Positions 31,952 through 51,656 of a DNA stretch of 64,000 nucleotides are shown piece after piece. The stretch covers positions 1-64,000 of IMG/VR virus record IMGVR_UViG_3300026101_000001, one strand, 5' to 3'. The notes beneath the pieces are model-generated. The model made no database searches. It was not told the DNA's origin and saw only the letters and a list, made by a program, of their open reading frames with translations. A program made the translations under genes and the position numbers. How positions within the stretch are numbered: position 1 is the first letter of the stretch; every line of letters begins with the position of its first letter. This DNA is from a virus (Duplodnaviria > Caudoviricetes).

Positions 31952-33733
31952 TTAGTACCGACGAATTATTTTTGTCGGGTTATTGCTGGAAGAATAACCG
32001 ATTAAGTCGGTTGTGCCAAAGATATCATTATCTTGTTGGCCTAGAAGGATACCTCCACCGTGGCCAGCGTTAGAGAAATCGGTATTCACATTCACCCAGC
32101 CCTCAAGACCGTCTTTTACAATCTTATACGAGACCCCTGCGGCGAGATAGGCCATTGCGTGGAAGAAGTGGTCTTTACCGGAAAGCTTAACCCAAACGGC
32201 TTGTTCCTCTTCGACTTCCTCTCTGATCATATCCTGAAGATGAGACTCTATTTTGTCTTGGTTACTGGTGTAACCTTCAATCGACCACGTTAAGTTTCTT
32301 ACACCCGTGGCCACATGGTCTAGCATATCGGTACGGTTTACCTTGATATAGTCCACTTCCCCGAGTGCATTCTTCTCTTCAGCAACTTCCTTACTTTTCG
32401 TGTAGTGCACCGGCATAATTCGCCCGAGGCTACCGTTACGGATATCATTACTGGTAGGTGTATAAGGGTACCTATCCAAGCCTCCCCCAACAAAATGATA
32501 TTGCTCATCTAGCTTATTAACCAGCCCCCGTAATTGGTCTATATGGCAGTACGTGGCTAAAATAATCCGCATCTTTCTAGGGTCGGTACCACAACCTACA
32601 ACGATGTAGCACGTTACCCCCATATCGATACCAATGAAGTGTGGTTCACCTTGTCTTGGCTCTGGGATAGCTGGGCTTCCCATGGCTAGTTTTATCTGGC
32701 TTAACGAAAGCTTCTGGTCTTCGTTGTTGTAGGACTCACCCTTAACCGTGTTGTAAAAGCCCTTCAGGTTATCATTCGATTTGTAATCAAATAACTGAGC
32801 GAAACAATACTGAGGGTCTAGTCTGTGGGTAGAGAACGTGCGGATACGGTACCCGCGGTTGAGCACCCGACTCGGGTATTTAGCCACCCATTCACGGTTT
32901 TCGTAGTCAGCAAGGTTTAGGGGCTTCCGGCATTTTTCACAAACCACGCGTGCGGATTGAATATCGAGCTGGCCAGAGTCGATAAGGTTATCTGAGATAT
33001 CTTCAAATTTTTCCAAATCATCTGGTAGGCCATCGACTTCGACGAACGCTCGGCTAAATACGGGTATTTGGTAATGGTTGCAGCAACGGCACTTAATCAC
33101 GTACTCATGCTGGTCACTTCTTCGGTATCCTCTGTCTACACCTACCCCTTCATAAGTTGGGGTACTGAAACGCTGGTTAACACGGTGATCGGAACCTTGT
33201 AGACGAGAGTTAAAGAGTGACAACATTGACGGGTCTGTTAAGTCAATCTCATCGTTAAAAACAAAGTCCGCGTTGATACTCGTGGCGTCGGCCTCTGCAG
33301 AACCAGTGACGTAAAGGAAACTGGTACCAATCCGCATAAGGTCCATAGACTGTTTGGTCTTGTCCCCATTCTCTTGCCTGAAAGCTTTATCAAAATTAAT
33401 CAACGGCTGGATACGCGCTTTTGAAATACGCTTAAACATCCGCTCATTCGGCATGGTGTAAATCAAAGAGGTGTTGGGCGTCCGGCTTAATATCGCCAGC
33501 GCTTTACGAATCTGTATTTCGGTAAGACCAACCTGAGAGGGCTTTATACAATCGAGGCTGGGGTGCATATCATCGGCAATCTGTTTTTGGAAGGGATAGC
33601 GCTCGAAACTAAAAGGCCGCTTGTTGAGTGAAGTGTTGGCACACATCCAATCACCATGCGTCATATCTTTCGAATCTTTGTTGTACCGGCCTTCTGCAGT
33701 CGAGTACAAATCCATTAAAAACTGATTAGCCAC
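31952..33733 (-). CDS. Terminase large subunit, lambda gpA-like
   Basis: KPSQVGLTE Walker A variant, FNDEID Walker B, FSTPT, CxxC zinc motifs, IGIDMG nuclease, KDHFFHA; GTG start at 33733 after GAGGT. Confidence 0.88.
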   Translation of the reverse strand: MANQFLMDLYSTAEGRYNKDSKDMTHGDWMCANTSLNKRPFSFERYPFQKQIADDMHPSLDCIKPSQVGLTEIQIRKALAILSRTPNTSLIYTMPNERMFKRISKARIQPLINFDKAFRQENGDKTKQSMDLMRIGTSFLYVTGSAEADATSINADFVFNDEIDLTDPSMLSLFNSRLQGSDHRVNQRFSTPTYEGVGVDRGYRRSDQHEYVIKCRCCNHYQIPVFSRAFVEVDGLPDDLEKFEDISDNLIDSGQLDIQSARVVCEKCRKPLNLADYENREWVAKYPSRVLNRGYRIRTFSTHRLDPQYCFAQLFDYKSNDNLKGFYNTVKGESYNNEDQKLSLSQIKLAMGSPAIPEPRQGEPHFIGIDMGVTCYIVVGCGTDPRKMRIILATYCHIDQLRGLVNKLDEQYHFVGGGLDRYPYTPTSNDIRNGSLGRIMPVHYTKSKEVAEEKNALGEVDYIKVNRTDMLDHVATGVRNLTWSIEGYTSNQDKIESHLQDMIREEVEEEQAVWVKLSGKDHFFHAMAYLAAGVSYKIVKDGLEGWVNVNTDFSNAGHGGGILLGQQDNDIFGTTDLIGYSSSNNPTKIIRRY

Positions 33734-33772
33734 AGCTACCTCAATTATCGTCAATTAGTCTATTTTCCGAAT

Positions 33773-33815: not shown

Positions 33816-33845
33816 ATTTAACCTATAACAAAGCGGAGATTGACG

Positions 33846-34334
33846 ATGAAAACACCCAAGTTCTATCCTGAGTTCACCCCTAACCTTTTCACAACGCTGA
33901 ATACGTGGAAAAAACTAATTCAAGACGACCCAACCTACCTCGACGATGAAGACTGCCCTTACGAGCCCAACGAGATAGAATTCCTTACCGCGATTTTTAG
34001 CACCCAAACCGACGCTGGCATAACCGTTGCAGACTCAGAACTAGAGGATTCAGATGCGGTTCCTGATTTCGAGACGGAAGCACTTCAGCTTTACCGTGAT
34101 ATGAAAACATTTAAAACGGCACTGAACAAAAGTGACACAAGCGAAATGACCAGTACGTTTCGTACCATGGTGTCACTGATGGAAAAAATCCTCGATGTTC
34201 AAGAACGAGCCTCAGGTATAAAACAATTTGGTGTATTCAAAACGTTTATCCTCGATAGCATGGAGCGCTATCTAACACCGCAGCAAAAAACTGAGTTTAT
34301 CGACGAAATGAAACTCGTACTTAATCAGGAGTAA
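33846..34334 (+). CDS. Hypothetical protein divergent from terminase (possibly small terminase)
   Basis: GGAGATTGACGATG start; helical 162 aa; function inferred from position only. Confidence 0.55.
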   Translation: MKTPKFYPEFTPNLFTTLNTWKKLIQDDPTYLDDEDCPYEPNEIEFLTAIFSTQTDAGITVADSELEDSDAVPDFETEALQLYRDMKTFKTALNKSDTSEMTSTFRTMVSLMEKILDVQERASGIKQFGVFKTFILDSMERYLTPQQKTEFIDEMKLVLNQE

Positions 34335-34338: not shown

Positions 34339-36846
34339 ATGTATAGTTTATTATCGAAAGCCTTATTTGCTGTAGGTATCCCAACCATTCCGCTGTTTAA
34401 AACTTCAAAGCTCCCTGCTATCCCTAGTGATAAAATACTTCATGCGACCCAGGAGTTACACCAAAAGAATTGGCAAGCGACACATGCGGATAAGCTTTGC
34501 GGCGTGGCCTTGGGTCAGGCGCTCAAAGACGAGAGTGAATATTGTCTTGTCGCGTTAAGGCTCGATCATAAACAATCCGATTTAAAGCTTTCGCTCTCTC
34601 ATAAGCTTCCTTCAAGCTTTTGGCTGGTCTCTGAATCAAATAGCCATTACATGATTTTTAAAGCGCCGGCACCTTCGCCTTGTAGTGAGTCACTAAAATC
34701 GTTCACGGTTCTTGGCTCGGGCCTCGAGGGAAGTTTACTTTCGTTCTTAGCGGAAGATACGTTCGTAGTACTAAGTTCACCGACTCAGGTACCTACCAAA
34801 GACGTCGTAGATAACTTACCGGTATTTGAACCACACCATATCATGGATGTGTTGCAGGAGATTATGCCGGATGTGGAGTTTCAAAAAGAGCCATACCAGC
34901 ACGAAGCAAGGACAAAATTACACACTCTAGGCCAATTGGACGTAACTATGCGCTCTTACCTGACGCATTTTTGCTACGATTTTTTACTGAATTGCGACCA
35001 AAACACGTACCTTTTGCCCGTTTTGCAAGAAATTGACGCGCTTTATGATAGTTTTTCGCAAAATTTTGCCAAAATACCCCCAAATCATCAAAAAGACGCC
35101 TATTTCCAGACCTTCTACTCACTTATCCACCAAGTGCGTATGTACTACAACCTTCGCCTTCCGCCCCACTGGGACATCAATATTGGCTCTAATCTAAGGG
35201 ACAGATACGCGATTCCCTTCACTTCGAAGGACGCGCAATACACCTATCAAGGCCTTCAGAAGTACGTTTACGATAAAATGTCCGACGCCATAGGCAACGA
35301 AACCCAAATGTTGAGTGCATGCCAGTCGGCCATGGAAGAAATCGCACGCTCATTCACAGTAACCAAACTCGAAGTAGACCAGCTCAAGCGATATATCTCG
35401 CGTCAGTCTGGGATGAAGCTAAACATGACGAAGATGGATAGTCAGATAGCAAATCTTAGGAAGCAAGCGCGGGGCGTGATAGACCTTCCGGCCATCGTTA
35501 CTATTGTTACTCAATTTCTCTCAAGTCAAACCGAGCATCGCTATGATGCGGCCATCGATGCCCAGAGATTATGCCGTTGGCTAGGCACGCATTGGGAACC
35601 TGTAGAAGACCATGAGATAAGCCATATCATCAACACCTACTTTCCGTCGAACTTCACAGACAAGGGTACGCGTAACACCAATACGATTATTACGGCTATC
35701 AAAAACAAACTGGCCCTGCCCCTTCGACGCGTCAATTCTGTAGGGGTGAACTTCAACAACGGGTTCGTGAACTCCCAACTTCAGCTATTACCCCACGACC
35801 CAGATATGGGGTTAACCTATACGTTGCCATTTACCTTCAACCCAGACCAAGTTTACCCACCCGAAAAGCTATATAAATTTATCACGGAGATTTGGGAGAA
35901 CGACGACGAGAGCGATAACATAATGGCTTTGCAAGAAGCGATGGCCGCGACGTTCTTCAACACGGGGACACTTTTTCAAAGGGCCATCCTACTTCACGGC
36001 ACGCCAAAATCAGGAAAGAGTCAGATACTCAATATCATTCGCGGTCTGGTACCACCCCAAAAGCGCGTTTCACTCCCGCCCAACAAGTGGGGAGATAATG
36101 ACGCGCTGGCCGCGCTATCGAATAAACTACTAAACCTGTGTGGCGAACTCTCTGAAAACGAACCTATCAACAGCCAGCGCTTCAAAGATATTGTTGATGG
36201 CCAAGAAGTCACGCTTAAGCGAAACATCAACCAACATAACACCCTGCAACCGATGGCTACACATTGGTTCGCCTCAAACCATCTGCCAAAAACTAAAGAT
36301 TTCTCGGAAGGATTTACTCGACGCTGGTTGATACTCAATACGGAAAGACCTATTCCCCCTGAAAATCGAGAGCTGGATGTTGGTAACAAAATTGTTGCTG
36401 AAGAAAAGGACAAGATTATCTCGTGGGCCTTACGCGCTTATCCGAGACTGGTCAACAATCGCGACTACACCTTACCCGACTCACATCATGAGCTCGTGCG
36501 CCAGCTCGGGCAGATGAACAATAACGTTCGATACTTCTTCGAAGCCTCTGGGTATATTGAATTGTCTGATGATTCTATGATAGCGGTGCTTAAATCCCTA
36601 CCAAAAGACGAGTTGATTGATGAGCTTAAGTCACTACCTTCTATAGCCGGTAGGGATTTATATACCCTCTACGCCGCATCTGTTCGCGAATTTAAAAACG
36701 GGGCTGTCGTGGATGAAGGTGAATTCTATCGTCGAACCAAAGAGCTCAGTACGCTTTATCAGTTTCTCCAAGTCGTGGGACGCGATTCGAAAAACCGATT
36801 AGTTATTCAGTATTATGGACTGAACATTCAATTAAACGCTCATTAA
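34339..36846 (+). CDS. Primase-helicase, D5/P4-like SF3 helicase with degenerate prim-pol-like N-terminus
   Basis: HGTPKSGKSQI Walker A, LNLCGE, FASNHLP, GFTRRW; D5_N-like VNFNNG/LTYTLPF. Confidence 0.85.
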   Translation: MYSLLSKALFAVGIPTIPLFKTSKLPAIPSDKILHATQELHQKNWQATHADKLCGVALGQALKDESEYCLVALRLDHKQSDLKLSLSHKLPSSFWLVSESNSHYMIFKAPAPSPCSESLKSFTVLGSGLEGSLLSFLAEDTFVVLSSPTQVPTKDVVDNLPVFEPHHIMDVLQEIMPDVEFQKEPYQHEARTKLHTLGQLDVTMRSYLTHFCYDFLLNCDQNTYLLPVLQEIDALYDSFSQNFAKIPPNHQKDAYFQTFYSLIHQVRMYYNLRLPPHWDINIGSNLRDRYAIPFTSKDAQYTYQGLQKYVYDKMSDAIGNETQMLSACQSAMEEIARSFTVTKLEVDQLKRYISRQSGMKLNMTKMDSQIANLRKQARGVIDLPAIVTIVTQFLSSQTEHRYDAAIDAQRLCRWLGTHWEPVEDHEISHIINTYFPSNFTDKGTRNTNTIITAIKNKLALPLRRVNSVGVNFNNGFVNSQLQLLPHDPDMGLTYTLPFTFNPDQVYPPEKLYKFITEIWENDDESDNIMALQEAMAATFFNTGTLFQRAILLHGTPKSGKSQILNIIRGLVPPQKRVSLPPNKWGDNDALAALSNKLLNLCGELSENEPINSQRFKDIVDGQEVTLKRNINQHNTLQPMATHWFASNHLPKTKDFSEGFTRRWLILNTERPIPPENRELDVGNKIVAEEKDKIISWALRAYPRLVNNRDYTLPDSHHELVRQLGQMNNNVRYFFEASGYIELSDDSMIAVLKSLPKDELIDELKSLPSIAGRDLYTLYAASVREFKNGAVVDEGEFYRRTKELSTLYQFLQVVGRDSKNRLVIQYYGLNIQLNAH

Positions 36847-36961
36847 TCAATCAGGCATAACCTTAGGCGAAAAAATTTTTAAAAATTTTTTCGCCTTTTT
36901 TACGTTTCTTTGCACACATTGACAATGTGTGTAAGTGCTTTCAATTGATGAACTTTTCCAA

Positions 36962-36990: not shown

Positions 36991-37267
36991 TATTTCAGAA
37001 ATACGACAACAAAAGCCCTCGTGATTTAACACTTATATAACAGAATATAAGGTTTGCCACCGGTTTACTTACTTGACCAATCGAGGAGATTTTTATACTT
37101 TAGTTGGCGTTGACAGCAAACAGCTTACATGCCTCAACCGCGGGAGCCCAGCGCTCCTTACAATTTGGAAATTGACGATAAAGCCTGTTCTAATCTTTGT
37201 GCCCGTCCGCATACCTAGTTTCAAGCTTATCCTACGAGCAACGACCTCTGATTACGTTGAACGTCTC

Positions 37268-37306: not shown

Positions 37307-37471
37307 GGCCTAGGTTCTCGGGTCGCAGTTCTCGGGTAAAGTTTCTAGTTTCTGGGGTGAAGGTTCTCGGGTCGCGGTTCTAGGTTTGAGGGTAGTATCT
37401 ATAACCTTCCAAAATTCCAAAAATTTTTCAGGTGGAGTGAGAGGGCCACCCCACTATATCACCCCATTTTC

Positions 37472-37501: not shown

Positions 37502-37591
37502 GAATGCAACTCGGGACACGTACCACTTAACACGGCTCGAGGGGGGGAACATTCCCCCACCAACAAATTAACTTTTAAGGAATTGACGATT

Positions 37592-38311
37592 ATGACTACT
37601 GCTACCACTTTCAATGCTTCTGTTTTTGCTTCTGCTCTTGTTACCGCTGATAAAAATGACCTACGCGTGCCAGCCGTGAAAATGGCTATTGCGTGCTATG
37701 CCGTAGCACACAACATGGAAAAAGGCGCTAACATCGCGCTTTGTTGTGACCTGTATGGCGTGCCAGCTAACCAACGCACAAAAGCCAACCGTGACAGCTC
37801 ACGCCTATACAACCAAGCAAAAGGTTACTGGAAAACTTACGTGAAATTCGTAAATGATAACCGTCAATATCTAACCAAGTTTTTTGATTCTATCAAAACC
37901 ATTGAGTTAAACGGCACATTCGCGCAAATTGGTGACAAGGTATTAAACGCGGATATTTACGGCGAAAACGGTGCACCGCAAGGTCGCGTAGAATGGCTTA
38001 ACTTTTTAGGTGAATACTTGCCTAAAGAAACGAAAGAAGAAAAGCCAAGCAAAGACGCAAAAAGCGCACCTGTAAAGGGCAAGGACAAAGAAGGGGGAGC
38101 GGCAAAGCGTGCTGCTGATGATAACGTCACAAGCGCTGTTCAGGCTCTTGTTTCTAAGCTTGAGGATCATACTCAAGCATTGATTAATCATCAGCTTGAA
38201 GCACTCGACGCGGCCGGTTTACCTAAAGCACATCGCGCCAAAGTTAGTAAGGCAATGCTTGCTTTATCGCTTGAGATTCAAAAGGATCTAGAAAAGCAAT
38301 TAAACAAGTAA
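37592..38311 (+). CDS. Hypothetical early protein
   Basis: Start after AAGGAATTGACGATT; 239 aa. Confidence 0.75.
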   Translation: MTTATTFNASVFASALVTADKNDLRVPAVKMAIACYAVAHNMEKGANIALCCDLYGVPANQRTKANRDSSRLYNQAKGYWKTYVKFVNDNRQYLTKFFDSIKTIELNGTFAQIGDKVLNADIYGENGAPQGRVEWLNFLGEYLPKETKEEKPSKDAKSAPVKGKDKEGGAAKRAADDNVTSAVQALVSKLEDHTQALINHQLEALDAAGLPKAHRAKVSKAMLALSLEIQKDLEKQLNK

Positions 38312-38351
38312 GCCCAGCGGGGGGAACATTCCCCCCTCAATTCGAGAAACG

Positions 38352-38388
38352 AAAAACCGATTAGAACTAGCCGTGCTAATCGGTTTTT
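38352..38388 (+). terminator. Intrinsic terminator
   Basis: AAAAACCGATTAG...CTAATCGGTTTTT then T-rich tail. Confidence 0.75.
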
Positions 38389-38586
38389 TATTTTTCGCGA
38401 GGCTATTAAGCGCGTGCCTACCTATGCTGGTGGTGTGTGCCAGTGCCTAGGCTCTCGTGTCTAGGATCTAGGCTGGTGGATTGTGATAGCAATTCGCGTG
38501 AAGGGAATTTGGGCAACTACAGGGCCGTGACTGTCGCGGCGATTTTAGGGGGGAACATTCTCCCCCAGATTTGAGGGAATAATATT

Positions 38587-38847
38587 ATGAAAATACCAAT
38601 GCGAATTTTGAGACAGAACAATGGTTTGAATCTGGGGACCACGGAATATATAAACGACAAGAAAGTTTGGTTTCATAAACTTGAGTTGGTAGGTACAACG
38701 GCTCAGCTTGAGCGCTGGTGGCGAATGCGCCAGCGTAGACCTAATCCACTTAAAGACTTGGATGAGGTTGTTATGTACAACGTTGAGCATGAGGGCGTGC
38801 TTGAGTGTGCAGAGGTTCAGGAAATAATTGCTCGATATGAGCGCTAA
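38587..38847 (+). CDS. Hypothetical protein
   Basis: GAGGGA RBS; flanked by hairpin repeats. Confidence 0.6.
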   Translation: MKIPMRILRQNNGLNLGTTEYINDKKVWFHKLELVGTTAQLERWWRMRQRRPNPLKDLDEVVMYNVEHEGVLECAEVQEIIARYER

Positions 38848-38889
38848 TTAAGGGGGGAACATTCTCCCCCAGAGACAAGGAAATTGATG

Positions 38890-39123
38890 ATGATTACACG
38901 TACAGATATCGCTTTATTTATCGCGTTTATGGTGCATTTCATGATGCTGGTGGCTGGGTTCACGGTACTCATTACGAGTGCCAATGGCCTGGGCTTAATT
39001 GAGGTATCGAGTTACGCCAGTGTGCCGTTGTTTTTGATCTCCGTAGCGACCCTCAAAGCAGAGACTCTAGACAGAAGAAGTAATTTTCGGCTGGTGGAAG
39101 TTCGCTTTCATTCTAAAAAATAG
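38890..39123 (+). CDS. Small two-TM membrane protein
   Basis: AGGAAATTGATGATG start variant; two hydrophobic segments. Confidence 0.55.
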   Translation: MITRTDIALFIAFMVHFMMLVAGFTVLITSANGLGLIEVSSYASVPLFLISVATLKAETLDRRSNFRLVEVRFHSKK

Positions 39124-39331
39124 AATCTAGAATCGAGGCTGGTGGTTTTTGGTTCGAGAAAAAAGGACAAAAAATTCGAATCGAGGGTTGACAGCGCGGA
39201 AATAGGAGCAGCGCCGATTCCAACCCTCAAGCCTCTATCCAAGCTTCTCGCATGAGAATATAGGACCTCTACAAGGGTCGTGTAAAGTATTTTAAGGCCA
39301 CAGGTATTCGCCTTAACCTCAAAACAGAGCC

Positions 39332-39410
39332 CAATTTAAGGGCTTCAGGGGGGAACATTCTCCCCCTATTTTAGGACAATTTAAGGGCTTCAGGGGGGAA
39401 CATTCCCCCC
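39332..39410 (+). repeat. 29-bp direct repeat, two copies, 45-bp period, each containing a hairpin
   Basis: CAATTTAAGGGCTTCAGGGGGGAACATTC at 39332 and 39377. Confidence 0.9.
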
Positions 39411-39442
39411 TCATTTGAGCACATTTTGACAGGAAATTGACG

Positions 39443-39751
39443 ATGAAATTTAAGAACGTTTCGGTACATTTTGGCTGGTATAAGCCAGTGGTTGTCCTCC
39501 AATATGGCACGCTACAATACGAGATTGGCACGCTAGAATTGAAAGGTGTGACCCTCATGGAGCTAGGCAATTTAGACCCAGAACACGTAGCGAAGCATCA
39601 CCAAATGTTGTTGATTTGCGAAATGAGCACGGCAATTAGACTCGCTCAAAGGGACATTCCAGAGCCAGTTAACACCTGTTCCCGTAAACTTTTTGGCGAA
39701 ACTGACACAGAACAACCAAAAGTAACACACAAGCCCAATTTAAGCGCCTAG
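39443..39751 (+). CDS. Hypothetical protein
   Basis: AGGAAATTGACGATG start. Confidence 0.65.
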   Translation: MKFKNVSVHFGWYKPVVVLQYGTLQYEIGTLELKGVTLMELGNLDPEHVAKHHQMLLICEMSTAIRLAQRDIPEPVNTCSRKLFGETDTEQPKVTHKPNLSA

Positions 39752-40248
39752 ATACAACAACTTAGGTTTTGTGTTCCTATAAACTTTCTCGGCCATTTTT
39801 GTGATTTCTCAAAACGGTAGAATGCGGTCTGTAGCTGTGCGAATTTTGACCAGTTACGCGTAACTTCGGTGAGGGTAATTATTACTCGCAATGCCGTGGG
39901 TAACAAGGGCTTCAGAGCCGGTGGCAAAAATGTTCCCACAAACTTTCGTTATTAAATGTACATTTATATATTTTACTGGGAACATTTTTTAAGAAGTATA
40001 CTTTTAAAAACTTCGCTTTCGTTTTAATTCGTACCCAAGGATTATTTACAAGCGTTGTACGTGTTCCTCCTTGTGACTTGCTGCAAGTCGCAGTGATCTA
40101 CCCAACGACCTTTGCGTGACGAGCTGTGAGCTCTGCGTGATAAGAATTTGAATTCGCTTGTGGTGCTCACTGTCGCAACGTGCAACAAACCACCGTGGGA
40201 GTGAATCACACCCAAATTGTGTTTTTGGTCGAAATAAGACCATTGCAA

Positions 40249-40277
40249 TTGACTCGGGCATTTTGCCCTTGTATAAC
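40249..40277 (+). promoter_or_regulatory. Strong sigma70-like promoter with palindromic spacer
   Basis: TTGACT, 17 bp, TATAAC; spacer contains GGGCA-TTT-TGCCC. Confidence 0.7.
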
Positions 40278-40339
40278 TGAAATCCGCCCTTCGGGGTGTT
40301 ACGGCGTGAGCCGATTAATTAACTTAGGAAATTGACGAT

Positions 40340-40726
40340 ATGACTACCACCATTCCCCAGCCTGTAAACCAGACTGCTCCCTCCCCTCACGAACTCATGC
40401 GCCAAACCCAGCGCGAGATTGCTGAAACTGTCATGCAGATGAAAGCCAAGCAAATCGAATGTCTCATTGGTCTCTACCGAAAATCTGATGCTCTGAAGGG
40501 CACGAATGACCTCGGCGAAATGCACCGTCGTACTGAAGCGCTGAGCCAAGAACTCGGCCTGGACTTTTCAGTGGTTGAAAAACTGGTCGATTTTGGCTTT
40601 AACTGCGGTGTTGAATGCGCGGCCTCTATCGCATCCTCAGCGGGTGCAATGGAAAAGGTGCTAGGTAAGGACGAATTCACCGAGAAGTCTTCGCGTGGTG
40701 ACGCTGCGGCGCGAGAATCGGCATAG
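40340..40726 (+). CDS. Hypothetical protein
   Basis: AGGAAATTGACGATATG start; 128 aa. Confidence 0.7.
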   Translation: MTTTIPQPVNQTAPSPHELMRQTQREIAETVMQMKAKQIECLIGLYRKSDALKGTNDLGEMHRRTEALSQELGLDFSVVEKLVDFGFNCGVECAASIASSAGAMEKVLGKDEFTEKSSRGDAAARESA

Positions 40727-40757
40727 TTTAACCCGACAATTAGTGAGATTGACGATT

Positions 40758-41063
40758 ATGAGTAAAAAAGTGACTAAAAGTTCGAATCTAAATTCGATGC
40801 TTATGAAACATTGTGTGCGTGTTATGTATCTTTTGGATGAATTGAAAAGGTTGTGTGATTTACAAGGCACGGTTCACCTTGACGGAGATTATCCGTTGGC
40901 TATTCACGGGACGGATAAATTTTGTGTTGGTCCTTTCAATGTGAGTGGGGGCTGGTTTCAGGAGATTATCGCCCGTCGTAAAGCCGAAATTATCGATGAG
41001 CTATTCGATATGGGGTACGACCTTACTTCCTTCGAGGAGCCTAAGGACGAGGACGATGAGTAA
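40758..41063 (+). CDS. Hypothetical protein
   Basis: GAGATTGACGATTATG start. Confidence 0.6.
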   Translation: MSKKVTKSSNLNSMLMKHCVRVMYLLDELKRLCDLQGTVHLDGDYPLAIHGTDKFCVGPFNVSGGWFQEIIARRKAEIIDELFDMGYDLTSFEEPKDEDDE

Positions 41064-41550
41064 AAATCTACCTATTTTCCGGAGTATGATTGCGGTTGCG
41101 CATACGGCGAGAAACTGTGGTCGTTTGGCTATGACCATCGAGGGTGAAGATGAAGGCTCTCGCACCTCGATTGATAACCTCATGCCGATAACCAAAGACA
41201 CGCCACACACCACAATCGAGGGTTACTGTGTCCGTGACGCGAAGATTCGAGCCCTGATGGGCTGGGAGTATTCGCACTGGATGTTGATTGAGTCCGCGTT
41301 TATCTGTGCCTTGGTGGAAGAAGTGAGCCTTGTGCTGGATGATTTTGAAATGGGCTCGTTGATGATTGATTCGCTGTTGGGTGTCAATATCCACATTCGC
41401 CGGTATTCGGCTGAAGGTATAGGACTTGACCGCGATAAAATCAAAAGCTTTGCGTGGTTGTATCTGGGTAGTGAGTACCTCGATGATTTTATCAGCTACG
41501 CGGATTATTTACTGGCCATGCTTGAAGTAAGAGCACAAGACGCCGCCTAA
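41056..41550 (+). CDS. Hypothetical protein
   Basis: GAGGACGATG start overlapping the previous stop. Confidence 0.6.
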   Translation: MSKNLPIFRSMIAVAHTARNCGRLAMTIEGEDEGSRTSIDNLMPITKDTPHTTIEGYCVRDAKIRALMGWEYSHWMLIESAFICALVEEVSLVLDDFEMGSLMIDSLLGVNIHIRRYSAEGIGLDRDKIKSFAWLYLGSEYLDDFISYADYLLAMLEVRAQDAA

Positions 41551-41622
41551 GGGGGGGGAAATGTTCTCCCCTGCGGTTCGAAAAATTTGGTAATTAACTT
41601 TTTAAATTGGAAATTGACGACT

Positions 41623-42111
41623 ATGACTAGACTAACTGAATGTGGTCCTTACACCCCTACCGAGAAACGCGCTATCACTCGAGCGCTAAACATCATTCGT
41701 GAGAAACAGCCTAATTTCTATGGCCGTTCTAAGATTACTAATCCTATCGCTTGTCAGCAATATTGTGCCTTGCAACTGGTCGATGGCTCTCGCGAACGAT
41801 TTCTTTGCCTATTTCTAGACTCTCAACATGGTTTGATTAGCGGTGAAATCATGTTTGAAGGAACGATAAACGCGGCCTCGGTTTACCCTCGTGAGATAAT
41901 TCGTCGTGCTTTAGACCTGAATGCTGCGGCGTTGATAATCGCGCATAACCATCCCTCGGGGCACCCTGACCCGAGCCAAGCGGATATTCGTTTAACGCAA
42001 GAAATTAAACAGGCGTTAGCGAGTATCGATGTGCCGTTACTCGATCACATCATCGTAGGCAACGGCCAAGGTTGCCCCACTATTTCTCTTTCTCAACGAG
42101 GTGACTTATGA
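41623..42111 (+). CDS. radC: RadC-like JAB-domain protein
   Basis: [38 protein letters not shown]. Confidence 0.9.
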
Positions 42112-42593
42112 GTGCTGGTAATTTTCCGCTGTTAGAACTGTTAATCGAGACCATGGAAAAAGTGGTTGCGTCTGAGCTGCCATTTGAAATGGCCGATTTC
42201 TATAAGAACTACGATCCTGCCGACCAAGCCACCGATATTCACACTTGTGGCACTCCGGCCTGTGTAACTGGGTATGGTGCGGTTAATCCTAAAATTCAGA
42301 AACACTTGAATGTGGATATGCCCTATTTCCGAGCGGCGGAAACGGCTAAGCATATCGCGGGTTATTTGATATCTGAAATCGGGTGGTTGGGCTATTCGAT
42401 TTTTGTCAGCAAAGCCGAGGAAAGATATGCACATGCCTCCGATTACCTACCAGAAACCGACCTTGAGTTTGAGCACCTACACAAAGATGAGCCCGAGGCT
42501 AAGGAAACCTTGAAGTACATGAAGTATGTGCTGGCCTTCAAAGAGCGTGAACTAAAACGCTGGGAGCGTGAGGAAGCGGAAGATGAAAAATAA
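42108..42593 (+). CDS. Hypothetical protein
   Basis: ATGA overlap; [11 protein letters not shown] motif. Confidence 0.65.
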
Positions 42594-42915
42594 GAATGGA
42601 ATTGAAATTGAACTAGGTACCGTGAGCCGTGCTACGCACCGGACTCAAGATTTAATCCCGACGTTTCTGGATGCTGTCCGTCAATATGCCGAGGCGGAGT
42701 ATACCCAGATAATGGCCGGACCTTACAGCTTTATCCCCGCATGGGTAACCGATGAAGGTGACGAATGCGAGTGGTGGTATTGCGAGGAGGCCTGTCACAA
42801 GCTTGAAGAATTGTTCGAGATTTTAGACGCTCAAGCCCCAGAGGGCTATTACTTTGGGGCTCACGAAGGGGATGGCTCAGACTTTGGCTATTGGCCTATT
42901 CCTGATGAGGACTAA
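42583..42915 (+). CDS. Hypothetical phage protein
   Basis: APEGYYFGAHEGDGSDFGYW C-terminus. Confidence 0.7.
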   Translation: MKNKNGIEIELGTVSRATHRTQDLIPTFLDAVRQYAEAEYTQIMAGPYSFIPAWVTDEGDECEWWYCEEACHKLEELFEILDAQAPEGYYFGAHEGDGSDFGYWPIPDED

Positions 42916-42962
42916 ACGATAACGAGGGTGGGAAAATTCCCCCCCTCTTTTGGAGATTGACG

Positions 42963-43118
42963 ATGCGCCAAGTGTGCAAAAAGTGTGGTGGCACCATGCT
43001 AGGTGACGGGTATAAATCGGTTGAGCACTGCGAGTTTGCTACCGACCCAGAAATTGACTTTATGGCCCCTGATGAAGGGCCAGTTTATTGTGACTTTAAG
43101 GAAATTGACGATGAGTGA
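42963..43118 (+). CDS. Small Cys-containing protein (51 aa), absent from the ORF track
   Basis: GGAGATTGACGATG start; MRQVCKKCGGTMLGDGYKSVEHCEFATDPEIDFMAPDEGPVYCDFKEIDDE. Confidence 0.65.
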   Translation: MRQVCKKCGGTMLGDGYKSVEHCEFATDPEIDFMAPDEGPVYCDFKEIDDE

Positions 43119-43599
43119 AATTAATAGAAAAAATTATTTAGAAAACTTCCGTAACGACGAACTAGTGGACGTTATAGAGTCGTTGCAAAAGAAACTAGAG
43201 GACTCTAAGCAATCGATAAATACCCTAAAGCAAGAGTGCCAGCGAATCTACGAAAGTGAACAGTTCTTCTCAGGTGTGGTGCATGGTGAAGTCAAAGATC
43301 ACCGAATTGACTGCACACAAGTAGGGCCGCACTTTATTCGCCCAAGAGTGGTGTTTGACGTATGCACCGATGATGAAACCCACGTTCCTGACTGCACCAC
43401 ACTCGAACAAGCACAACGCTATTGCAAACAGCTTAATATCGAGGACCGTATGGGCGATGGCCGCGTGGACTTTGGTGGCGAAACAGCTAACGACCTAACG
43501 GGATTTGTCGAAGCGAACGAGCAGATGATACGTAACATTCTTACGCTGTCAGATGATGTTCTAGCCTATCTTTCAACCCTACCGGTAGGGGACGAGTAA
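43111..43599 (+). CDS. Hypothetical protein
   Basis: AGGAAATTGACGATG start. Confidence 0.65.
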   Translation: MSEINRKNYLENFRNDELVDVIESLQKKLEDSKQSINTLKQECQRIYESEQFFSGVVHGEVKDHRIDCTQVGPHFIRPRVVFDVCTDDETHVPDCTTLEQAQRYCKQLNIEDRMGDGRVDFGGETANDLTGFVEANEQMIRNILTLSDDVLAYLSTLPVGDE

Positions 43600-44087
43600 T
43601 GAGCGACTTAAAAGAATTCAAAATAGTGCTCGAAGAGAGCGATACCGGCCGACAGATTGTTTTACCTAACGTCATGGCAAGCGATTATGACGTTGCTGAA
43701 GCGTATGGCAACCATGTTGCTGCGGACCTACCGGTTTCTGAAATTGACCGACAACAAGGCTTTGGCCTGAGTGAAACGTCGTGGTCTTGTTACCCTGAGG
43801 AAGTGAAGCCCGAACCTGAAAAAATGCGTCGAATGGAGTGGAACACTGGGCGTCATTATGGTCCAGAGGGCCAGATTATTCGTGTTGTTGAGTATGAGTA
43901 TATTGCTCTATCCGGGGGGGCGCGAAGAGGTGTGTTGATGTATGACGTTACTCGTCGGATTTGCTATCAAATCAACGATTGCGAGTTCACTCAAGCTGCG
44001 GTCTTACATCGTTACGAATTTGGTGGCCTTAGCCCCTATTCAAAAGCCGAATTCGAAAAAGCCTGGGCGGAGGCCGTAGACGTATGA
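43599..44087 (+). CDS. Hypothetical protein
   Basis: TAATG overlap, GGGGA RBS. Confidence 0.65.
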   Translation: MSDLKEFKIVLEESDTGRQIVLPNVMASDYDVAEAYGNHVAADLPVSEIDRQQGFGLSETSWSCYPEEVKPEPEKMRRMEWNTGRHYGPEGQIIRVVEYEYIALSGGARRGVLMYDVTRRICYQINDCEFTQAAVLHRYEFGGLSPYSKAEFEKAWAEAVDV

Positions 44088-44305
44088 GTGAAGACACGCC
44101 GAAGATAAAGCGTCCCAGAAACAAGACGCTTATTGAAGTTATCACTTACCTTGAGTCGATAAACCTAAATGTTTATGGCTCTGCCCTTTGTTTAGAAACG
44201 GGGGAGAAGTCCTTTGGTTTGATGGACTATAACCCTGAGAACGTAGTGCAATACCGCAAGTTACTGGAAGCGGGAAAAATTGGAGAGGAAATTGACGATG
44301 AGTAA
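44084..44305 (+). CDS. Hypothetical protein
   Basis: ATGA overlap, GGAGG RBS. Confidence 0.6.
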   Translation: MSEDTPKIKRPRNKTLIEVITYLESINLNVYGSALCLETGEKSFGLMDYNPENVVQYRKLLEAGKIGEEIDDE

Positions 44306-44717
44306 CCAACCACATCCACAGCGATACACCTCAGAAGAGATTTTGGCGGATAAAGATATAGCGTTCTACAACATACCCGAAAGAGTCAGTTCGGGTATGC
44401 CTATTCACTATATCCTAGCGGATGAAGAATGGGGCTGGATGGAATTCGTAAAAGGCAAATACGCCATTCAAGACTACATCATGAAAAACCTTGAGTGGGT
44501 TGACCCTGATGATCCCGAGGCCGAATTTCAAGTTGCGGTTCTCACTATCAATTGTGCCGATGAATTGAGTCGAGCGCTCGATGCCGATTGTGGGGGTGCG
44601 GGTAAAGCCGTTTGTTTGGCGGATGATACCGCACTACAAGCTATTTTCTTCTCGCTGTATCAAGAAGACTGGAACGAACGTTTGGAGGACTTTGAAGATG
44701 CCAAAGAAGAAGAATAA
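44298..44717 (+). CDS. Hypothetical acidic protein
   Basis: AGGAAATTGACGATG start. Confidence 0.65.
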   Translation: MSNQPHPQRYTSEEILADKDIAFYNIPERVSSGMPIHYILADEEWGWMEFVKGKYAIQDYIMKNLEWVDPDDPEAEFQVAVLTINCADELSRALDADCGGAGKAVCLADDTALQAIFFSLYQEDWNERLEDFEDAKEEE

Positions 44718-44958
44718 AAACGTCCACATGATTGTTTGTCGTAAGCCTAATTCGGAGGAATTTAGTTTCTGGCCCCCGAAGATATTCCGTGGCCGCGTTG
44801 AAGCTATTACTGAGTTCGACAAGACATTTATTAAGTGTGATTCCTTTGAGGAAACGCTTAGAAAAGAATACTGCGACCAAATGGGCCAGTTATTGTTTTT
44901 CGAAACCGCAGCCGGTTTTCGCTGGCAGTTGTATTTAGACCTAGAACCTAACGATTAA
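44698..44958 (+). CDS. Hypothetical protein
   Basis: GGAGG RBS upstream of ATG 44698. Confidence 0.5.
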   Translation: MPKKKNKNVHMIVCRKPNSEEFSFWPPKIFRGRVEAITEFDKTFIKCDSFEETLRKEYCDQMGQLLFFETAAGFRWQLYLDLEPND

Positions 44959-44981
44959 AATTGACGATAAGGAGAAAAGCC

Positions 44982-45209
44982 GTGAATAAGATTGGATTAA
45001 TAACCGCGATGGTTGCTGGTATGGGGGCCTCGGTCTCTGGGGCGTGGGGTGAGAAATTAGCGCCCACTATAAAGCAAGTAGAAAAAGACCGCTCCAACTA
45101 TGCGCAGAAGATAGACCACTTAGGCCGGAAGAAGCCTAAGGGCAGCGCTGCGGTTCAGCGTCGTGAAGCGAAAAAGCGTAAAGCGCTTCGAGCGCGTTCG
45201 AAGAAATAG
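44982..45209 (+). CDS. Small basic protein, hydrophobic N-terminus and Arg/Lys-rich C-terminus
   Basis: AAGGAG RBS, GTG start; RREAKKRKALRARSKK. Confidence 0.6.
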   Translation: MNKIGLITAMVAGMGASVSGAWGEKLAPTIKQVEKDRSNYAQKIDHLGRKKPKGSAAVQRREAKKRKALRARSKK

Positions 45210-45219
45210 GGGGTTGGAT

Positions 45220-45417
45220 ATGCAATATTTCACAGCAGTGTTATTTGACCACCGACGCGGCAAGCGAGTGAACCACTGTGCCGCGGAGTGCTTGGCCTCT
45301 AACTTTCACCAAGCAGAAAACTTTGGTACCTCTTTAGCCGAGAAGTTTTCGCTAAAAGTAGAAGTTGAAGTTCGCTTGGGGCGTTTAGACACGCATAGGG
45401 ATTTACACGGTGAGTAG
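45220..45417 (+). CDS. Hypothetical protein
   Basis: GGGGG/GGA RBS before ATG 45220. Confidence 0.5.
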   Translation: MQYFTAVLFDHRRGKRVNHCAAECLASNFHQAENFGTSLAEKFSLKVEVEVRLGRLDTHRDLHGE

Positions 45418-45601
45418 TATCCCCAACCTATTTAAGGGCCTTGTTCCGGCAAAGGCTGACGCGCACTGTTCAAAGTGCCAGTCAAAGATAAGTGACTCAA
45501 GACGCCGTGCGATAGAAATGGAACTTGAGTTAATGGGTTCGAGCAAGAATATCTGCTCGGAATGTTTTAACCGTGAAGCGGTAATAATTAGTGTGATTTA
45601 G
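45410..45601 (+). CDS. Small zinc-finger-like protein
   Basis: CSKC...CSEC. Confidence 0.5.
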   Translation: MSSIPNLFKGLVPAKADAHCSKCQSKISDSRRRAIEMELELMGSSKNICSECFNREAVIISVI

Positions 45602-45648
45602 GGGGGAATGTTCTCCCCCCTTTGAAATTAACTTTTTGGAGATTGACG

Positions 45649-46188
45649 ATGGACCACTTTGATGCTCCACCTTGGGACGTAACGAGCAGCGCACCGATTG
45701 TTTCGCACCCTAAGGCTGAGCCTGATAAACGAGACTTGTTCATCACATTGTTCTGTGATGCTAGTTTCTGCCCAAAAACAAAAGCGGGGGGTTTTGGTGG
45801 TTGGGTAAAAGCGGGATTCCCTCCAAGAACCTTTCGTGTTGGAGGCGTCCTTAACGAATGCAATAACGCCGAAGAAGCTGAGATTTGTGCCGTTATCCAC
45901 ACCTTAACTCACGCCCAGCACAATAAATCCTTTAACACAGATTTTAGCTGGGAGGGAAAAGTTTTAGTAATCCAGTCGGATTGCCAAGGTGCAATCAAAA
46001 AACTAAAGCCCGTTATGGCGGAGAACTTAAAACACTTGAAACTGAAGTACATAAAGTGGAAGTGGGTTAAAGGCCATAGCGGGTATGGCAATAAACGCTC
46101 AGCGGTAAATGAGTTCTGCGACACACAAGCCAAGAAGTATATGTACGAAGAGAGAAAGCGCCGTAGAAATCGCGGTTTAGAAAATTAA
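45649..46188 (+). CDS. Ribonuclease HI family protein
   Basis: FCDASF, NNAEEAEI, QSDCQ, WVKGHSG, NEFCDTQAK catalytic pattern. Confidence 0.85.
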   Translation: MDHFDAPPWDVTSSAPIVSHPKAEPDKRDLFITLFCDASFCPKTKAGGFGGWVKAGFPPRTFRVGGVLNECNNAEEAEICAVIHTLTHAQHNKSFNTDFSWEGKVLVIQSDCQGAIKKLKPVMAENLKHLKLKYIKWKWVKGHSGYGNKRSAVNEFCDTQAKKYMYEERKRRRNRGLEN

Positions 46189-46210
46189 CTCTTAAATTTG
46201 GAAATTGACG

Positions 46211-47110
46211 ATGCAAATAAACGTAAACAGTTATTTTTGTGGTGCTGGCCTGATGGATATTGGGCTGATAAATGCGGGATTAACCATTAACCAGTCTTTT
46301 GAAATTGATAAAGACGCGGTTAAGACGTATCGCGAGAATATTGGCCACCATGTTCAACAGTGCGATTTGACTGAAGAGCTCGTGTTAAACCAAGAGGAAT
46401 GTGATGCGATGGTCTTCACCTACCCTTGCACCAAGTATTCCACGATAGGCGATATTCACGGTGTAAGAACGGGTGACGATTTATTCCTTCATGCTTTGCG
46501 TCACTTGGCCATTCGCAAGCCCGATGCTTACGTGGTGGAAAATGTGCCAGGAATGAGAGCGTTTCCGCTGGTAATGGAAGCTATGACAAAGTTGCCGGAT
46601 TACTACGTTCACGTTTTTTGTCCGGTCCAATCTCAGCATTGGTTACCCCAGCGAAGAGATCGTCTGATTATTTTTGGTACCCGCCGACCTTTTGAAGTTC
46701 GCCCCCCGAAGAGTTGTCGTCCTGTGACGCTGGCTGAAATTGTCGAGCATGACCCAGAAGTAACCTTGCCCAGCGCTATTAAAGCGCGAATGTCGGGTAA
46801 GTACCGTGACCTCCCAATAATCAGCGACCCCAGCAAAGGAGATATAGCGCCGACTTGTGTTGCTCACTACGCCAAGGATAAATCGACGCGCTTGGTTGCT
46901 GACAAGCGATTCCCAATGGGTGTTCGTCCTTACTCAGTGCGTGAGTATGCGAGGCTGCAGGGTGTACCAGACTGGTTTACGTTCCCTGTCTCGGCTACGT
47001 CGGCATATCGCCAGATTGGTAATGGTGTGTCAGTGCCGAAAGGTGAATGGGCAGGCGGCGAGTTGTTCCGCTATTTTCAACAAAGTAAAAAATTAGACAA
47101 GGTGGCTTAA
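46211..47110 (+). CDS. DNA cytosine-5 methyltransferase
   Basis: FCGAG motif I, YPC motif IV, ENV motif VI, QRRDR motif VIII, RQIGNGV motif X. Confidence 0.92.
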   Translation: MQINVNSYFCGAGLMDIGLINAGLTINQSFEIDKDAVKTYRENIGHHVQQCDLTEELVLNQEECDAMVFTYPCTKYSTIGDIHGVRTGDDLFLHALRHLAIRKPDAYVVENVPGMRAFPLVMEAMTKLPDYYVHVFCPVQSQHWLPQRRDRLIIFGTRRPFEVRPPKSCRPVTLAEIVEHDPEVTLPSAIKARMSGKYRDLPIISDPSKGDIAPTCVAHYAKDKSTRLVADKRFPMGVRPYSVREYARLQGVPDWFTFPVSATSAYRQIGNGVSVPKGEWAGGELFRYFQQSKKLDKVA

Positions 47111-47353
47111 GTGAAGTACGAACTGGTGTATCACGACAGGTTTACGCATGAGCGCCGTATGCAAGAGTTCTTTGCTCCGAATCCTGAGAAAGCAAAAGAG
47201 CACGCAGACAGCATGTGTGAGCGACGTAAAGTGCCTTACTGTTTAGTAGATGCAAATGGCCGAACGTGGGAGCGAGATTATAGTCGAGAGACTATGAAGC
47301 TCTATGATTGGTATGAAGTAACAACCCATAGCCCGATACGGGCTGCAAGCTAA
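47111..47353 (+). CDS. Hypothetical protein
   Basis: GTG start abutting the previous stop. Confidence 0.5.
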   Translation: MKYELVYHDRFTHERRMQEFFAPNPEKAKEHADSMCERRKVPYCLVDANGRTWERDYSRETMKLYDWYEVTTHSPIRAAS

Positions 47354-47411
47354 AAACGGGGGAGAATATTCCCCCCTCTTAATTAACTTTTAAAATTGGA
47401 AATTGACGATC

Positions 47412-48215
47412 ATGACTGATGTTAAACGTATCAATAAACAGGCTACGGCCACGATGCTGTTTGTAATTGCTGACGCGATTACACAACCACGCTTCGTAAA
47501 GTTCTTAGAAGATAACACCTCTCGATTTGGCTCAGATGGTACCGGTACCGTTGAAGACCTTCACGACAAGTTACGCCAGTTATTTGATTTTCAGCTTAAG
47601 CAAGCGGTAAGTGTGTATTCCGAGCAGTATTCAGTTTTGAGCTGGGAAGAAAAGTTACAAATGATGAGTGAAAAACTTATCAACTTAGGCAACCGCACGG
47701 CTCACAAGTGGCGTGTAAAGCTACACCAAAGCAGTAAGAAATTTATTGTCCCTCGCGGTGTGAGTTTATCGAAAGCTTTAACTGACTTGATGTTAAGTGC
47801 CCAGCCTCACCGAATAATTCTAAGTCAGTCTCGAGCCCCTACTCATCCAGACCATGACTGGCGTTGGGGTGGCGATATTGCCAATGCCGATATCTTTCTG
47901 GCCGCGCTATATAGTTTCGTTATTGCCAAAGACACGCTGGCCTACGACACAGGCATGATGTTTTTTGAAGACGTATTAACCGAGTTCGGCAATAAAATCG
48001 AATGGTTCGTGAAGGGGTATCCACACGACTTATTGGTTGTTGACCGAATGATAAATACGGGTGATCAGCGCAAAGACTATCAAGGTATCGGGCTACGCAC
48101 TGAGTTCTGTTCTACGTGGTCTATCACTTCCGAGACTAGAAATATCTTGAGCAGTCACGGTTATCGAGAACTACGCCATAAAACGTATGGCCGAACTAAA
48201 CAGGTGGCCGCATGA
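47412..48215 (+). CDS. Hypothetical protein
   Basis: GGAAATTGACGATCATG start. Confidence 0.7.
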   Translation: MTDVKRINKQATATMLFVIADAITQPRFVKFLEDNTSRFGSDGTGTVEDLHDKLRQLFDFQLKQAVSVYSEQYSVLSWEEKLQMMSEKLINLGNRTAHKWRVKLHQSSKKFIVPRGVSLSKALTDLMLSAQPHRIILSQSRAPTHPDHDWRWGGDIANADIFLAALYSFVIAKDTLAYDTGMMFFEDVLTEFGNKIEWFVKGYPHDLLVVDRMINTGDQRKDYQGIGLRTEFCSTWSITSETRNILSSHGYRELRHKTYGRTKQVAA

Positions 48216-48439
48216 AGAACCATTGCGAAAACCCTGAGTATGATGTGACGCAAGGACAAGTAGTGTGTCATGACTCAGGTACATTTAACAAAATTGTTGG
48301 TGAGGCTCTTGAAAACATGACTGAAGACAACTGGTTTACACAAGAGCTTTGGCTTTCAACGGTTGAGCACAAAGGTAAGCGTGTTCAAGTTCAATTGAAA
48401 GTAATGGCAGACGATTTAAGCTTTATAGACGAGAACTAA
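48212..48439 (+). CDS. Hypothetical protein
   Basis: ATGA overlap. Confidence 0.55.
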   Translation: MKNHCENPEYDVTQGQVVCHDSGTFNKIVGEALENMTEDNWFTQELWLSTVEHKGKRVQVQLKVMADDLSFIDEN

Positions 48440-48442
48440 ATC

Positions 48443-49594: not shown

Positions 49595-49651
49595 CCTGGG
49601 GGGAATGTTCTCCCCCTTCAATTAACTTTTACAATTTGGAAATTGACGATT

Positions 49652-51654: not shown

Positions 51655-51656
51655 CC

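Follow-up and report, generated by a model that had tools for sequence, protein, structure and literature searches.

Why should a temperate phage carry six copies of one octamer, all on the same strand, within 720 bp, and none in the remainder of its genome? The question is raised by a 64-kb stretch of viral DNA (64,000 nucleotides, hereafter the window), which is the first part of an 83,406-bp virus record. An original prediction, made from the letters alone, had proposed that these octamers are Chi sites shielding a free DNA end just to their right from the host nuclease RecBCD, by analogy with phage lambda, and had suggested counting the octamer in the full prophage and looking for its strand bias in the host chromosome. 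With respect to RecBCD, phages split into those that encode an inhibitor together with their own recombinase, and those whose Chi-loaded genomes use the host enzyme. The latter strategy is already known: oriented, end-biased Chi enrichment in phages was reported by Bobay et al. 2013 (PMC3784561), and more recently Zheng, Casjens, Davidson, Amundsen and Smith 2025 (PMC12315714) described Chi-rich lambdoid phages without a Rec module, comprising LLS and 60-70 others, and formulated the rule that phages lacking both an inhibitor and a recombinase use Chi.

The record carries a 32-bp direct repeat, which matches ssrA (the tmRNA gene) at its 3' end, at 97-128 and 83097-83128, and an integrase gene adjoins the latter copy; it is accordingly an 83-kb prophage integrated in ssrA. 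The primase region is 95-96% identical in an Alteromonadaceae MAG; on these sequence grounds, the host belongs to the Alteromonadaceae and the phage is a temperate phage of marine Alteromonas. The structural genes run leftward from the terminase large subunit (TerL) gene (31952..33754, minus strand; phrog_675, E 5e-105; PF05876), whose closest phage relatives are those of KB12-38, JWF, Seuss, Lumi and EAb13 (39-51% identity to the family by tblastn), with more distant matches in Staphylococcus, Bacillus, Enterococcus and Listeria phages; the JWF record annotates its TerL as similar to gp2.11 of Bacillus phage SPO1. Two rightward genes follow from 33840, i.e. one for a conserved protein of no assigned function (33840..34334, plus strand; phrog_30421), which is homologous to JWF_00006 and Lumi_006 (E 9e-10 and 4e-22, respectively) and serves as a synteny anchor, and one for a prim-pol/D5-like primase-helicase (34339..36846, plus strand), assigned by family and domain matches. 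A perfect 32-bp A/T-cored palindrome followed by a T run (36865..36896) forms the primase-operon terminator, and iteron-like GGTTCTCGGGT repeats together with A/T palindromes adjoin the primase gene at 36.9-37.4 kb.

The 3.5 kb after the primase gene hold small ORFs only, and the octamer array lies among them. ORF A (37592..38311, plus strand; 239 aa) matches viral hypothetical clusters only (Atlas) and no family in PHROGs or Pfam. An intrinsic-terminator hairpin with a T run (38343..38397, plus strand) stands directly before the first octamer, and is followed by ORF B (38587..38847, plus strand; 86 aa), the protein of which is conserved in a divergent clade of relatives (the 72% clade), and by ORF C (38887..39123, plus strand), encoding a small hydrophobic protein. 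For the ORFs of this region PHROGs, Pfam and Atlas yield no function. To the right of the array, a conserved non-coding block (39146..39300) begins directly after the last octamer and is 79% identical in the 72% clade, a further block at 39645-40118 is 74% identical in the same clade, and a conserved non-coding region (39752..40339) that contains an A/T-rich inverted repeat (39926-39989) precedes the first gene of a long rightward block. The orientation of the hairpin repeats flips across this conserved non-coding DNA. The long block, which starts at 40340, encodes RadC, RNase H, methyltransferases, ligase, helicase, FEN, RdgC, DNA polymerase, a second primase-helicase-like protein, SbcCD-like proteins and the integrase.

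When both strands of the window were searched, exact copies of GCTGGTGG were found on the plus strand at 38426, 38472, 38714, 38946, 39090 and 39138, so that the array spans 38426..39145. All six positions of the original prediction were thereby recovered, along with the absence of the octamer from the rest of the window on either strand. The count suggested for the full prophage gives the same picture, with six forward and no reverse copies in 83,406 bp; that is, the 720 bp of the array make up 0.9% of the genome, and the other 82.7 kb contain none. Dinucleotide shuffles (n=100) gave on average 1.27 copies and a maximum of four, none of the 100 reaching at least six. Furthermore, Markov models (orders 0 to 3) trained on the genome outside the array predict 0.8-1.6 copies per strand per genome, and put the probability of finding at least six copies in any 720-bp window at ~5e-14 to 4e-12. 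The division into three intergenic sites (38426, 38472 and 39138) and three coding ones, as originally reported, agrees with the ORF positions: the third site (38714) lies in ORF B (38587-38847), where it is read as R-W-W, and the fourth and fifth (38946 and 39090) lie in ORF C (38887-39123), where they are read as xxG-CTG-GTG-Gxx (Leu-Val). The two sites noticed for their common flanks are those at 38472 (ggatctagGCTGGTGG) and 39138 (gaatcgagGCTGGTGG), which have in common the longer context TCTAG(G/A)ATC(T/G)AGGCTGGTGG. Other repeat families are also dense in the region of the array.

Does GCTGGTGG act as Chi in the host genus, Alteromonas? In 26 genomes of this genus, the octamer is 2.5-3.5 times commoner than a control with its letters reversed, and in long host-genus contigs it is strongly one-stranded (e.g. 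38/46, 10/10 and 9/9). When octamers were ranked by strand skew in 400 kb of one host-genus contig, GCTGGTGG came first (32 vs 4, z 4.7), while the composition-matched control GGTGGTCG was evenly distributed (4 vs 4) in the same scan; the strand rich in GCTGGTGG there is the G-rich one, presumably the leading strand. Its density in the host is ~1 per 20 kb, which is lower than in E. coli, as against ~1 per 120 bp in the phage array. RecC (PF04257) was detected with an E value of 1e-88 in the MAG that harbours the 95-96% identical prophage, as well as in two further host-genus genomes, RecC being the subunit that was searched for. The phage thus carries the exact Chi octamer, this octamer is over-represented and strand-biased in the host genus, and the host RecBCD enzyme is represented by RecC, which together bear out the host side of the original prediction. 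These data, which are genome statistics, support the view that GCTGGTGG behaves statistically like Chi in Alteromonas, and they provide computational evidence for GCTGGTGG as the Chi of this genus.

The array is not a peculiarity of one genome. Fourteen other related contigs or loci hold co-oriented Chi octamers at the matching position, and their primases are 72-100% identical to that of the present phage where measured. The relatives include nine viral contigs, one MAG contig and three further metagenome contigs. Their Chi octamers sit 1.6-2.4 kb downstream of the primase gene; eleven relatives that span the place have 4-6 octamers each, and in two contigs whose ends fall at or within the array, five and two are seen, respectively. 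No further GCTGGTGG was found on either strand across up to 22 kb of the relatives' contigs. Moreover, in five whole related genomes (76-91 kb) all copies are clustered except for two in one provirus record, and these two strays probably lie in its host flank. A nucleotide search of a phage collection with the 36-42 kb segment gave no match; the relatives were reachable through proteins only.

Comparison among these relatives revealed a turnover of individual sites. In an alignment of the closer relatives, site 1 has been lost from two genomes by a T-to-A change, and both of these genomes have gained a new Chi octamer 300 bp away, made by two substitutions. Other close relatives have lost site 4 or 5 by single changes, or have extra sites in insertions, and each closely aligned genome keeps five or six octamers despite this turnover. 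In the 72% clade, the surroundings of the array are largely unalignable with the window, yet six (or four) octamers are present, two of them built into a hairpin repeat of the clade's own, and three or four located in the small membrane-protein ORF that is the counterpart of ORF C, where they serve as Leu-Val codons in the same frame. Among 31 distinct site contexts collected from the phage and its relatives, the octamer alone is conserved, the flanks carrying at most 0.75 bit per position. As the information is confined to eight bases and the number of copies is kept, selection would seem to act on Chi itself and on its copy number, and the pattern argues for such a target rather than for a longer protein-binding site.

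If the octamers are Chi sites, which DNA end do they face? The present phage belongs to the JWF/Seuss/Lumi/EAb13/KB12-38 group of ~80-kb siphoviruses and matches it in genome size; homologues of TerL (minus strand), the conserved gene of no assigned function (plus strand) and the primase (plus strand) occur in the same order in JWF, Seuss, Lumi and EAb13. All four of these characterised relatives have a direct terminal repeat (DTR), the primase gene standing upstream of it. By PhageTerm, the DTR is 2,177 bp long in EAb13 (PMC10508131) and 2,298 bp long in Lumi (PMC9959647), and on comparison the two repeat copies proved identical in each; that of Seuss is 1,748 bp according to its record features, and that of JWF is 1,466 bp, its copies likewise being identical. 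In all four, the DTR starts 0.36-1.63 kb after the primase gene, from which its outer (physical) end is 2.4-3.1 kb distant. Applied to the present phage, these distances put the outer end at about 39.2-39.9 kb, to the right of the last Chi octamer (which ends at 39145); the predicted end is placed at about 39.2-40.05 kb overall. By synteny, therefore, the array would be located in the outer part of a predicted DTR and face the predicted end, and the repeat, of which ORF A would be the first gene, may be ~1.8-2.6 kb long. Prophages and circular assemblies hold a single copy of a terminal repeat, so that the DTR of the present phage is a prediction. JWF has been described as temperate (PMC9959647) and has a DTR, which means that lysogeny and a DTR coexist in this family. 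The ORFs of the predicted repeat do not resemble their positional counterparts in Lumi, EAb13 and JWF, so the synteny of the repeat is positional only.

Several features may mark the boundaries of the predicted repeat. In EAb13, Lumi, Seuss and JWF, the motif AAAATTTTT followed by ~20 nt precedes the start of the DTR, and a similar motif occurs here at 37419-37428. The segment 37419..37455 (plus strand) consists of AAAAATTTTT, ~18 nt and then GCCACCCCAC, which resembles the first bases of the EAb13 repeat; it is a weak candidate for the inner repeat boundary, the motif being short. For the outer edge, or physical right end, the nearest candidate is the conserved non-coding block 39146..39300, inside which a related 25.9-kb viral contig ends, at the window equivalent of 39226; the region 39752..40339 is an alternative candidate for the outer boundary, or else for an origin. 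Among other contig ends, one falls inside the array of a 72%-clade member, and one MAG contig ends at 39645; a metagenome scan returned five contigs, none of which clearly ends near the predicted end. As markers of a physical end, contig ends are suggestive at best. Two IMG/VR contigs labelled 'DTR' were discarded as true termini, because their starts differ and lie far from the array, as is the case for circular-assembly overlaps. A lambda-type cos end, which the PF05876 match of TerL had brought into consideration, was dropped as well, since the closest characterised relatives all have DTRs. The end that matters here is thus most likely that of a DTR, of the kind found in T5 or SPO1. With regard to the original prediction, the free end just to the right of the array (about 39.2-40.3 kb) is where synteny with the four DTR phages would place it, and the polarity logic borrowed from lambda holds, but the lambda analogy most likely fails as to the type of end.

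We also looked for phage functions that would act upon RecBCD or replace host recombination. A six-frame search for lambda Gam and Mu Gam was empty, in line with the original remark that no Gam-like inhibitor was recognised; the many small ORFs of no assigned function may include RecBCD inhibitors of other classes, such as Abc2 or gp5.9. Similarly, searches for homologues of RecT, ERF and RecA found none in the phage. The recombination-related proteins that the phage does carry are the SbcCD-like proteins, RdgC, RadC and FEN. The failure to find Gam, Mu Gam, RecT, ERF or RecA fits the rule of Zheng et al. 2025. Taken together, the RecBCD premise of the original prediction is supported, and all its premises that could be checked held.

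In our reading, to which we attach a moderate degree of confidence, the six octamers are working Chi sites that form a RecBCD switch at one genome end, within the predicted DTR. According to the polarity rule quoted in PMC12315714, a Chi octamer on the plus strand is active for RecBCD that enters from the right and travels leftward; given the strand of the octamers, the array faces the predicted primase-side end. The enzyme would load on this end, either on injected virion DNA or on a concatemer that has been cut by terminase or broken, would travel leftward, and would meet the first Chi within ~0.1-0.9 kb, so that no more than a few hundred bases at the end would be degraded before one of the six is recognised. 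RecBCD responds to a lone Chi in only part of its passages, and a row of five or six would therefore make recognition nearly certain. After Chi, degradation of the 3'-ended strand would stop and RecA would be loaded on the repeat DNA left of the array; the RecA filament could then invade the other copy of the repeat, the outcome being a circle, which integration requires, or else a concatemer or a replication fork primed by recombination. The host nuclease entering at this end would thus probably repair or circularise the genome instead of destroying its DNA. The existence of a DTR here, the position of the end and the action of RecBCD at it are all inferred. Some observations go against such a switch. 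There is no reverse Chi in the genome, hence the array covers one end only, and RecBCD entering from the other end would meet none; small early genes adjoin that other end, which would be in keeping with its entering the cell first; and distant family members in other hosts do not have a consistent array of a known Chi.

Other explanations must be weighed against the switch at a packaged end. One of them accepts that Chi acts on RecBCD, but takes the guarded end to arise in replication, as the tail of a rolling circle moving leftward or as a fork that has collapsed, from an origin at 39.2-40.3 kb, in which case the array would preserve replication intermediates, as Chi does for red gam mutants of lambda. 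The conserved non-coding blocks at 39146-39300 and 39645-40118, the A/T-rich inverted repeat at 39926-39989 and the flip in hairpin-repeat polarity at that point would suit an origin, and both the failure to find Gam and a polarity that fits an end on the right are accounted for. However, the more conventional origin features, namely the A/T palindromes and the iteron-like GGTTCTCGGGT repeats at 36.9-37.4 kb, lie to the left of the array and would give a tail of the wrong polarity, and family synteny independently places the packaged end to the right; we consider a replicative end unlikely. The related idea of a rightward rolling circle from the iteron-like region at 37.3 kb was rejected, as it gives the wrong Chi polarity. 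It is also conceivable that the main benefit of the array is immune evasion, in that fewer fragments would become available for CRISPR adaptation or Argonaute-type systems and there would be no inhibitor for the host to sense. A Gam-type inhibitor was indeed not found and the array is kept across the clade, and some published accounts connect spacer acquisition with Chi and the products of RecBCD, and sensitivity to Gabija with antagonists of RecBCD. Sequence cannot separate this benefit from end protection or recombination, though, and it would be a further gain from the one mechanism, not a mechanism of its own; that it is the principal one seems to us quite unlikely.

The remaining explanations dispense with RecBCD. 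The octamer might be the site of another protein, such as the small terminase at a pac site or a regulator of early genes, its identity to Chi being a coincidence. It is common for packaging and regulatory sites to take the form of short repeats close to a genome end, two copies here have the longer context in common (TCTAG(G/A)ATC(T/G)AGGCTGGTGG), and other repeat families crowd the region. On the other hand, conservation ends exactly at the eight Chi bases; the sites occur in coding as well as non-coding DNA, in unrelated contexts, and even in the non-homologous DNA of the 72% clade; and the octamer, whose copies in the array all have one orientation, is independently the most strand-skewed one in the host genus. 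A non-RecBCD protein is for these reasons a very improbable explanation. Finally, that the array has no function at all, having arisen by chance, through CTG-GTG codon usage or by capture of host DNA, is of practically negligible probability: two of the coding sites do use Leu-Val codons, but half of the sites are non-coding, the chance probability is ~1e-12, host DNA has ~1 site per 20 kb whereas the array has 1 per 120 bp, and lost sites are replaced across the clade.

If the octamers are a RecBCD switch, as we favour, the phage resembles the LLS class in several respects. In both, the host Chi occurs in one orientation and is enriched toward one genome end, from which RecBCD would recognise it and which in the present phage is a predicted end. 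The turnover of sites expected for that class is observed here. The LLS class has no recognisable RecBCD inhibitor or strand-annealing protein, and in the present phage the searches for Gam, Mu Gam, RecT, ERF and RecA found no match. LLS has 23 Chi over 42.7 kb (~1 per 1.9 kb), of which half fall within the final 22% of its length (PMC12315714), whereas the six of the present phage all lie in 720 bp with none elsewhere, so that the density of the LLS class (at least 8 sites in active orientation in 29-58 kb) is not reached. The co-orientation typical of that class is complete (6 to 0), and the evidence for facing an end is the synteny with four DTR phages. Nor is the organisation lambdoid, gene content and order being those of the JWF/Seuss group; also unlike LLS, the phage is ~81-83 kb long, has its own polymerase, primase, ligase, SbcCD-like proteins and RdgC, and belongs to a marine Alteromonas host, in which Chi has not been defined experimentally.

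Phage P1, in the account given in PMC12315714, has terminal redundancy and ~50 Chi, and needs RecA and RecBCD for growth. Like P1, the present phage is temperate; the linear, terminally repeated DNA of P1 is circularised by host recombination, for which the same account proposes Chi as a driver. The ends of P1 are circularly permuted by headful packaging and its Chi are scattered, in contrast to the predicted fixed ends and single array here. The laboratory Chi mutations of 1982, as cited in PMC12315714, have the same polarity, Chi being active only when facing the free end, but each was a lone site, and terminase holds the other end of the cos phage that carried them, unlike the natural array studied here. 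In the JWF group, of which JWF itself is temperate like the present phage, the order of the homologous genes for TerL, the protein of no assigned function and the primase is the one seen here, but no array of GCTGGTGG was seen in the examined parts of the JWF-group genomes. Tandem Chi placed on linear DNA protect it against RecBCD, a laboratory practice used in linear-fragment recombination and cell-free expression. The present array is similar to these engineered constructs in having several Chi in a row near an end and facing outward, the difference being that it is natural and evolutionarily maintained. In the literature that we searched, neither a terminal repeat with a Chi array nor the Chi of Alteromonas was described. 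What sets the present case apart from the known ones is the layout, the type of phage and the host. Beside the two known strategies, the present case would be a third, minimal layout, with one compact array at one predicted end of a large, replication-autonomous and non-lambdoid temperate phage. The six sites, lying in 720 bp, can be scrambled at once and thus offer a clean experimental handle, by which protection, circularisation of terminally repeated DNA and immune evasion could be separated.

Could it be that phages with fixed DTRs generally track their hosts by means of outward-facing arrays of the host Chi in one of the repeats? We regard this as doubtful. Downstream of the primase gene in ~60 distant family members, arrays of GCTGGTGG, GNTGGTGG, GSTGGAGG and GCTGGCGC form no consistent pattern except in one viral contig (L081), and the top repeated octamers in distant family members are mostly hairpin or regulatory repeats. 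The exceptional contig, 82.8 kb in length, ends in nine tandem GCTGGAGG with the same polarity as the array here. Xylophilus phage Lumi, furthermore, has five co-oriented G(G)CGGTGG within the outer 1.1 kb of its mapped repeat, again with the same polarity, the last copy being 136 nt from the end. If the general idea is true, the octamer that recurs most often in a single orientation close to a mapped phage end would reveal the Chi of its host, which suggests that phage termini could be mined for the Chi of uncultured hosts. A Lumi-like TerL was present in none of 400 sampled genomes from the class of the Lumi host.

In the Xylophilus phage Lumi (OQ067477.1), five co-oriented copies of G(G)CGGTGG (L041:143-1104, in the Lumi sequence) occupy the outer 1.1 kb of the 2,298-bp terminal repeat, which was mapped by PhageTerm, and 136 nt separate the final copy from the genome end. 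This array has the same polarity toward the end as the Chi array described here, and G(G)CGGTGG, which over the whole Lumi genome occurs 4 times in the forward and, counting unique copies, 11 times in the reverse orientation, could be a Chi-like signal of the Lumi host. The related 82.8-kb viral contig IMGVR_UViG_3300046506_000220 carries at its end, 1.6 kb past the primase gene, an 11-bp tandem repeat (L081:11609-11715) with nine copies of GCTGGAGG, again in the polarity of the present array, and the counts of this octamer over the whole genome are 20 versus 3. The tandem repeat is either an array of Chi-like sites at a genome terminus or a repetitive stretch at which the assembly broke. In the Acinetobacter phage EAb13, five co-oriented copies of GGCCGTGGC lie around the inner portion of the terminal repeat of 2,177 bp (L043:7109-8572), and 9 nt separate the left end of the genome from CCACCAGC, i.e. 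Chi on the opposite strand (L044:9-16).

The inner boundaries of these terminal repeats also share a sequence feature. A AAAATTTT(T) tract precedes the boundary by about 7-23 nt in EAb13 (L043:7175-7250), Lumi (L041:2290-2360), Seuss (L125:1740-1810) and JWF (L040:1460-1530), and the window has this tract too (37419-37455), with a C-rich ACCCCA motif after it. The tract may be a conserved signal for processing by the terminase. Directly before the start of the terminal repeat predicted here by synteny, about five copies of an iteron-like repeat, GGTTCTCGGGT, were found (37310-37393), which may serve as origin or packaging sites, and a degenerate copy extends into the second Chi (38447-38481).

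The window also contains a family of 13 G6-N6-C6 hairpins (37542-53972). Six have the loop AACATT and all fall within the predicted repeat region (37542-39410), and the other seven, with a reversed or varied loop, are all intergenic (41554-53955). In the relatives whose primase is 72% identical, Chi is contained in the hairpin variant itself (GCTGGTGGGGAACTCCCCACCAAC). The initiation regions at gene starts are conserved as GGAAATTGACGAT(N)ATG (37581-37598, 38878-38893, 39431-39446, 40324-40341, 40747-40764 and 41606-41629); a further copy, at 37164-37187, is not followed by an ORF.

In addition to RadC (41587-42111), the phage has a gene for a full-length homologue of RdgC (PF04381, E 5e-83) at 66680-67573 of the whole record (L038:2880-3773). 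RdgC is a modulator of RecA function in E. coli, and the presence of its homologue is of note in view of the apparent recruitment of RecBCD and RecA by this phage. The prophage is bounded by a 32-bp direct repeat (window 97-128 and record 83097-83128, L038:19297-19328), whose sequence is that of the 3' end of ssrA, the tmRNA gene; the record begins in the interior of ssrA, and an integrase gene (record 81849-83087) adjoins the second copy of the repeat.
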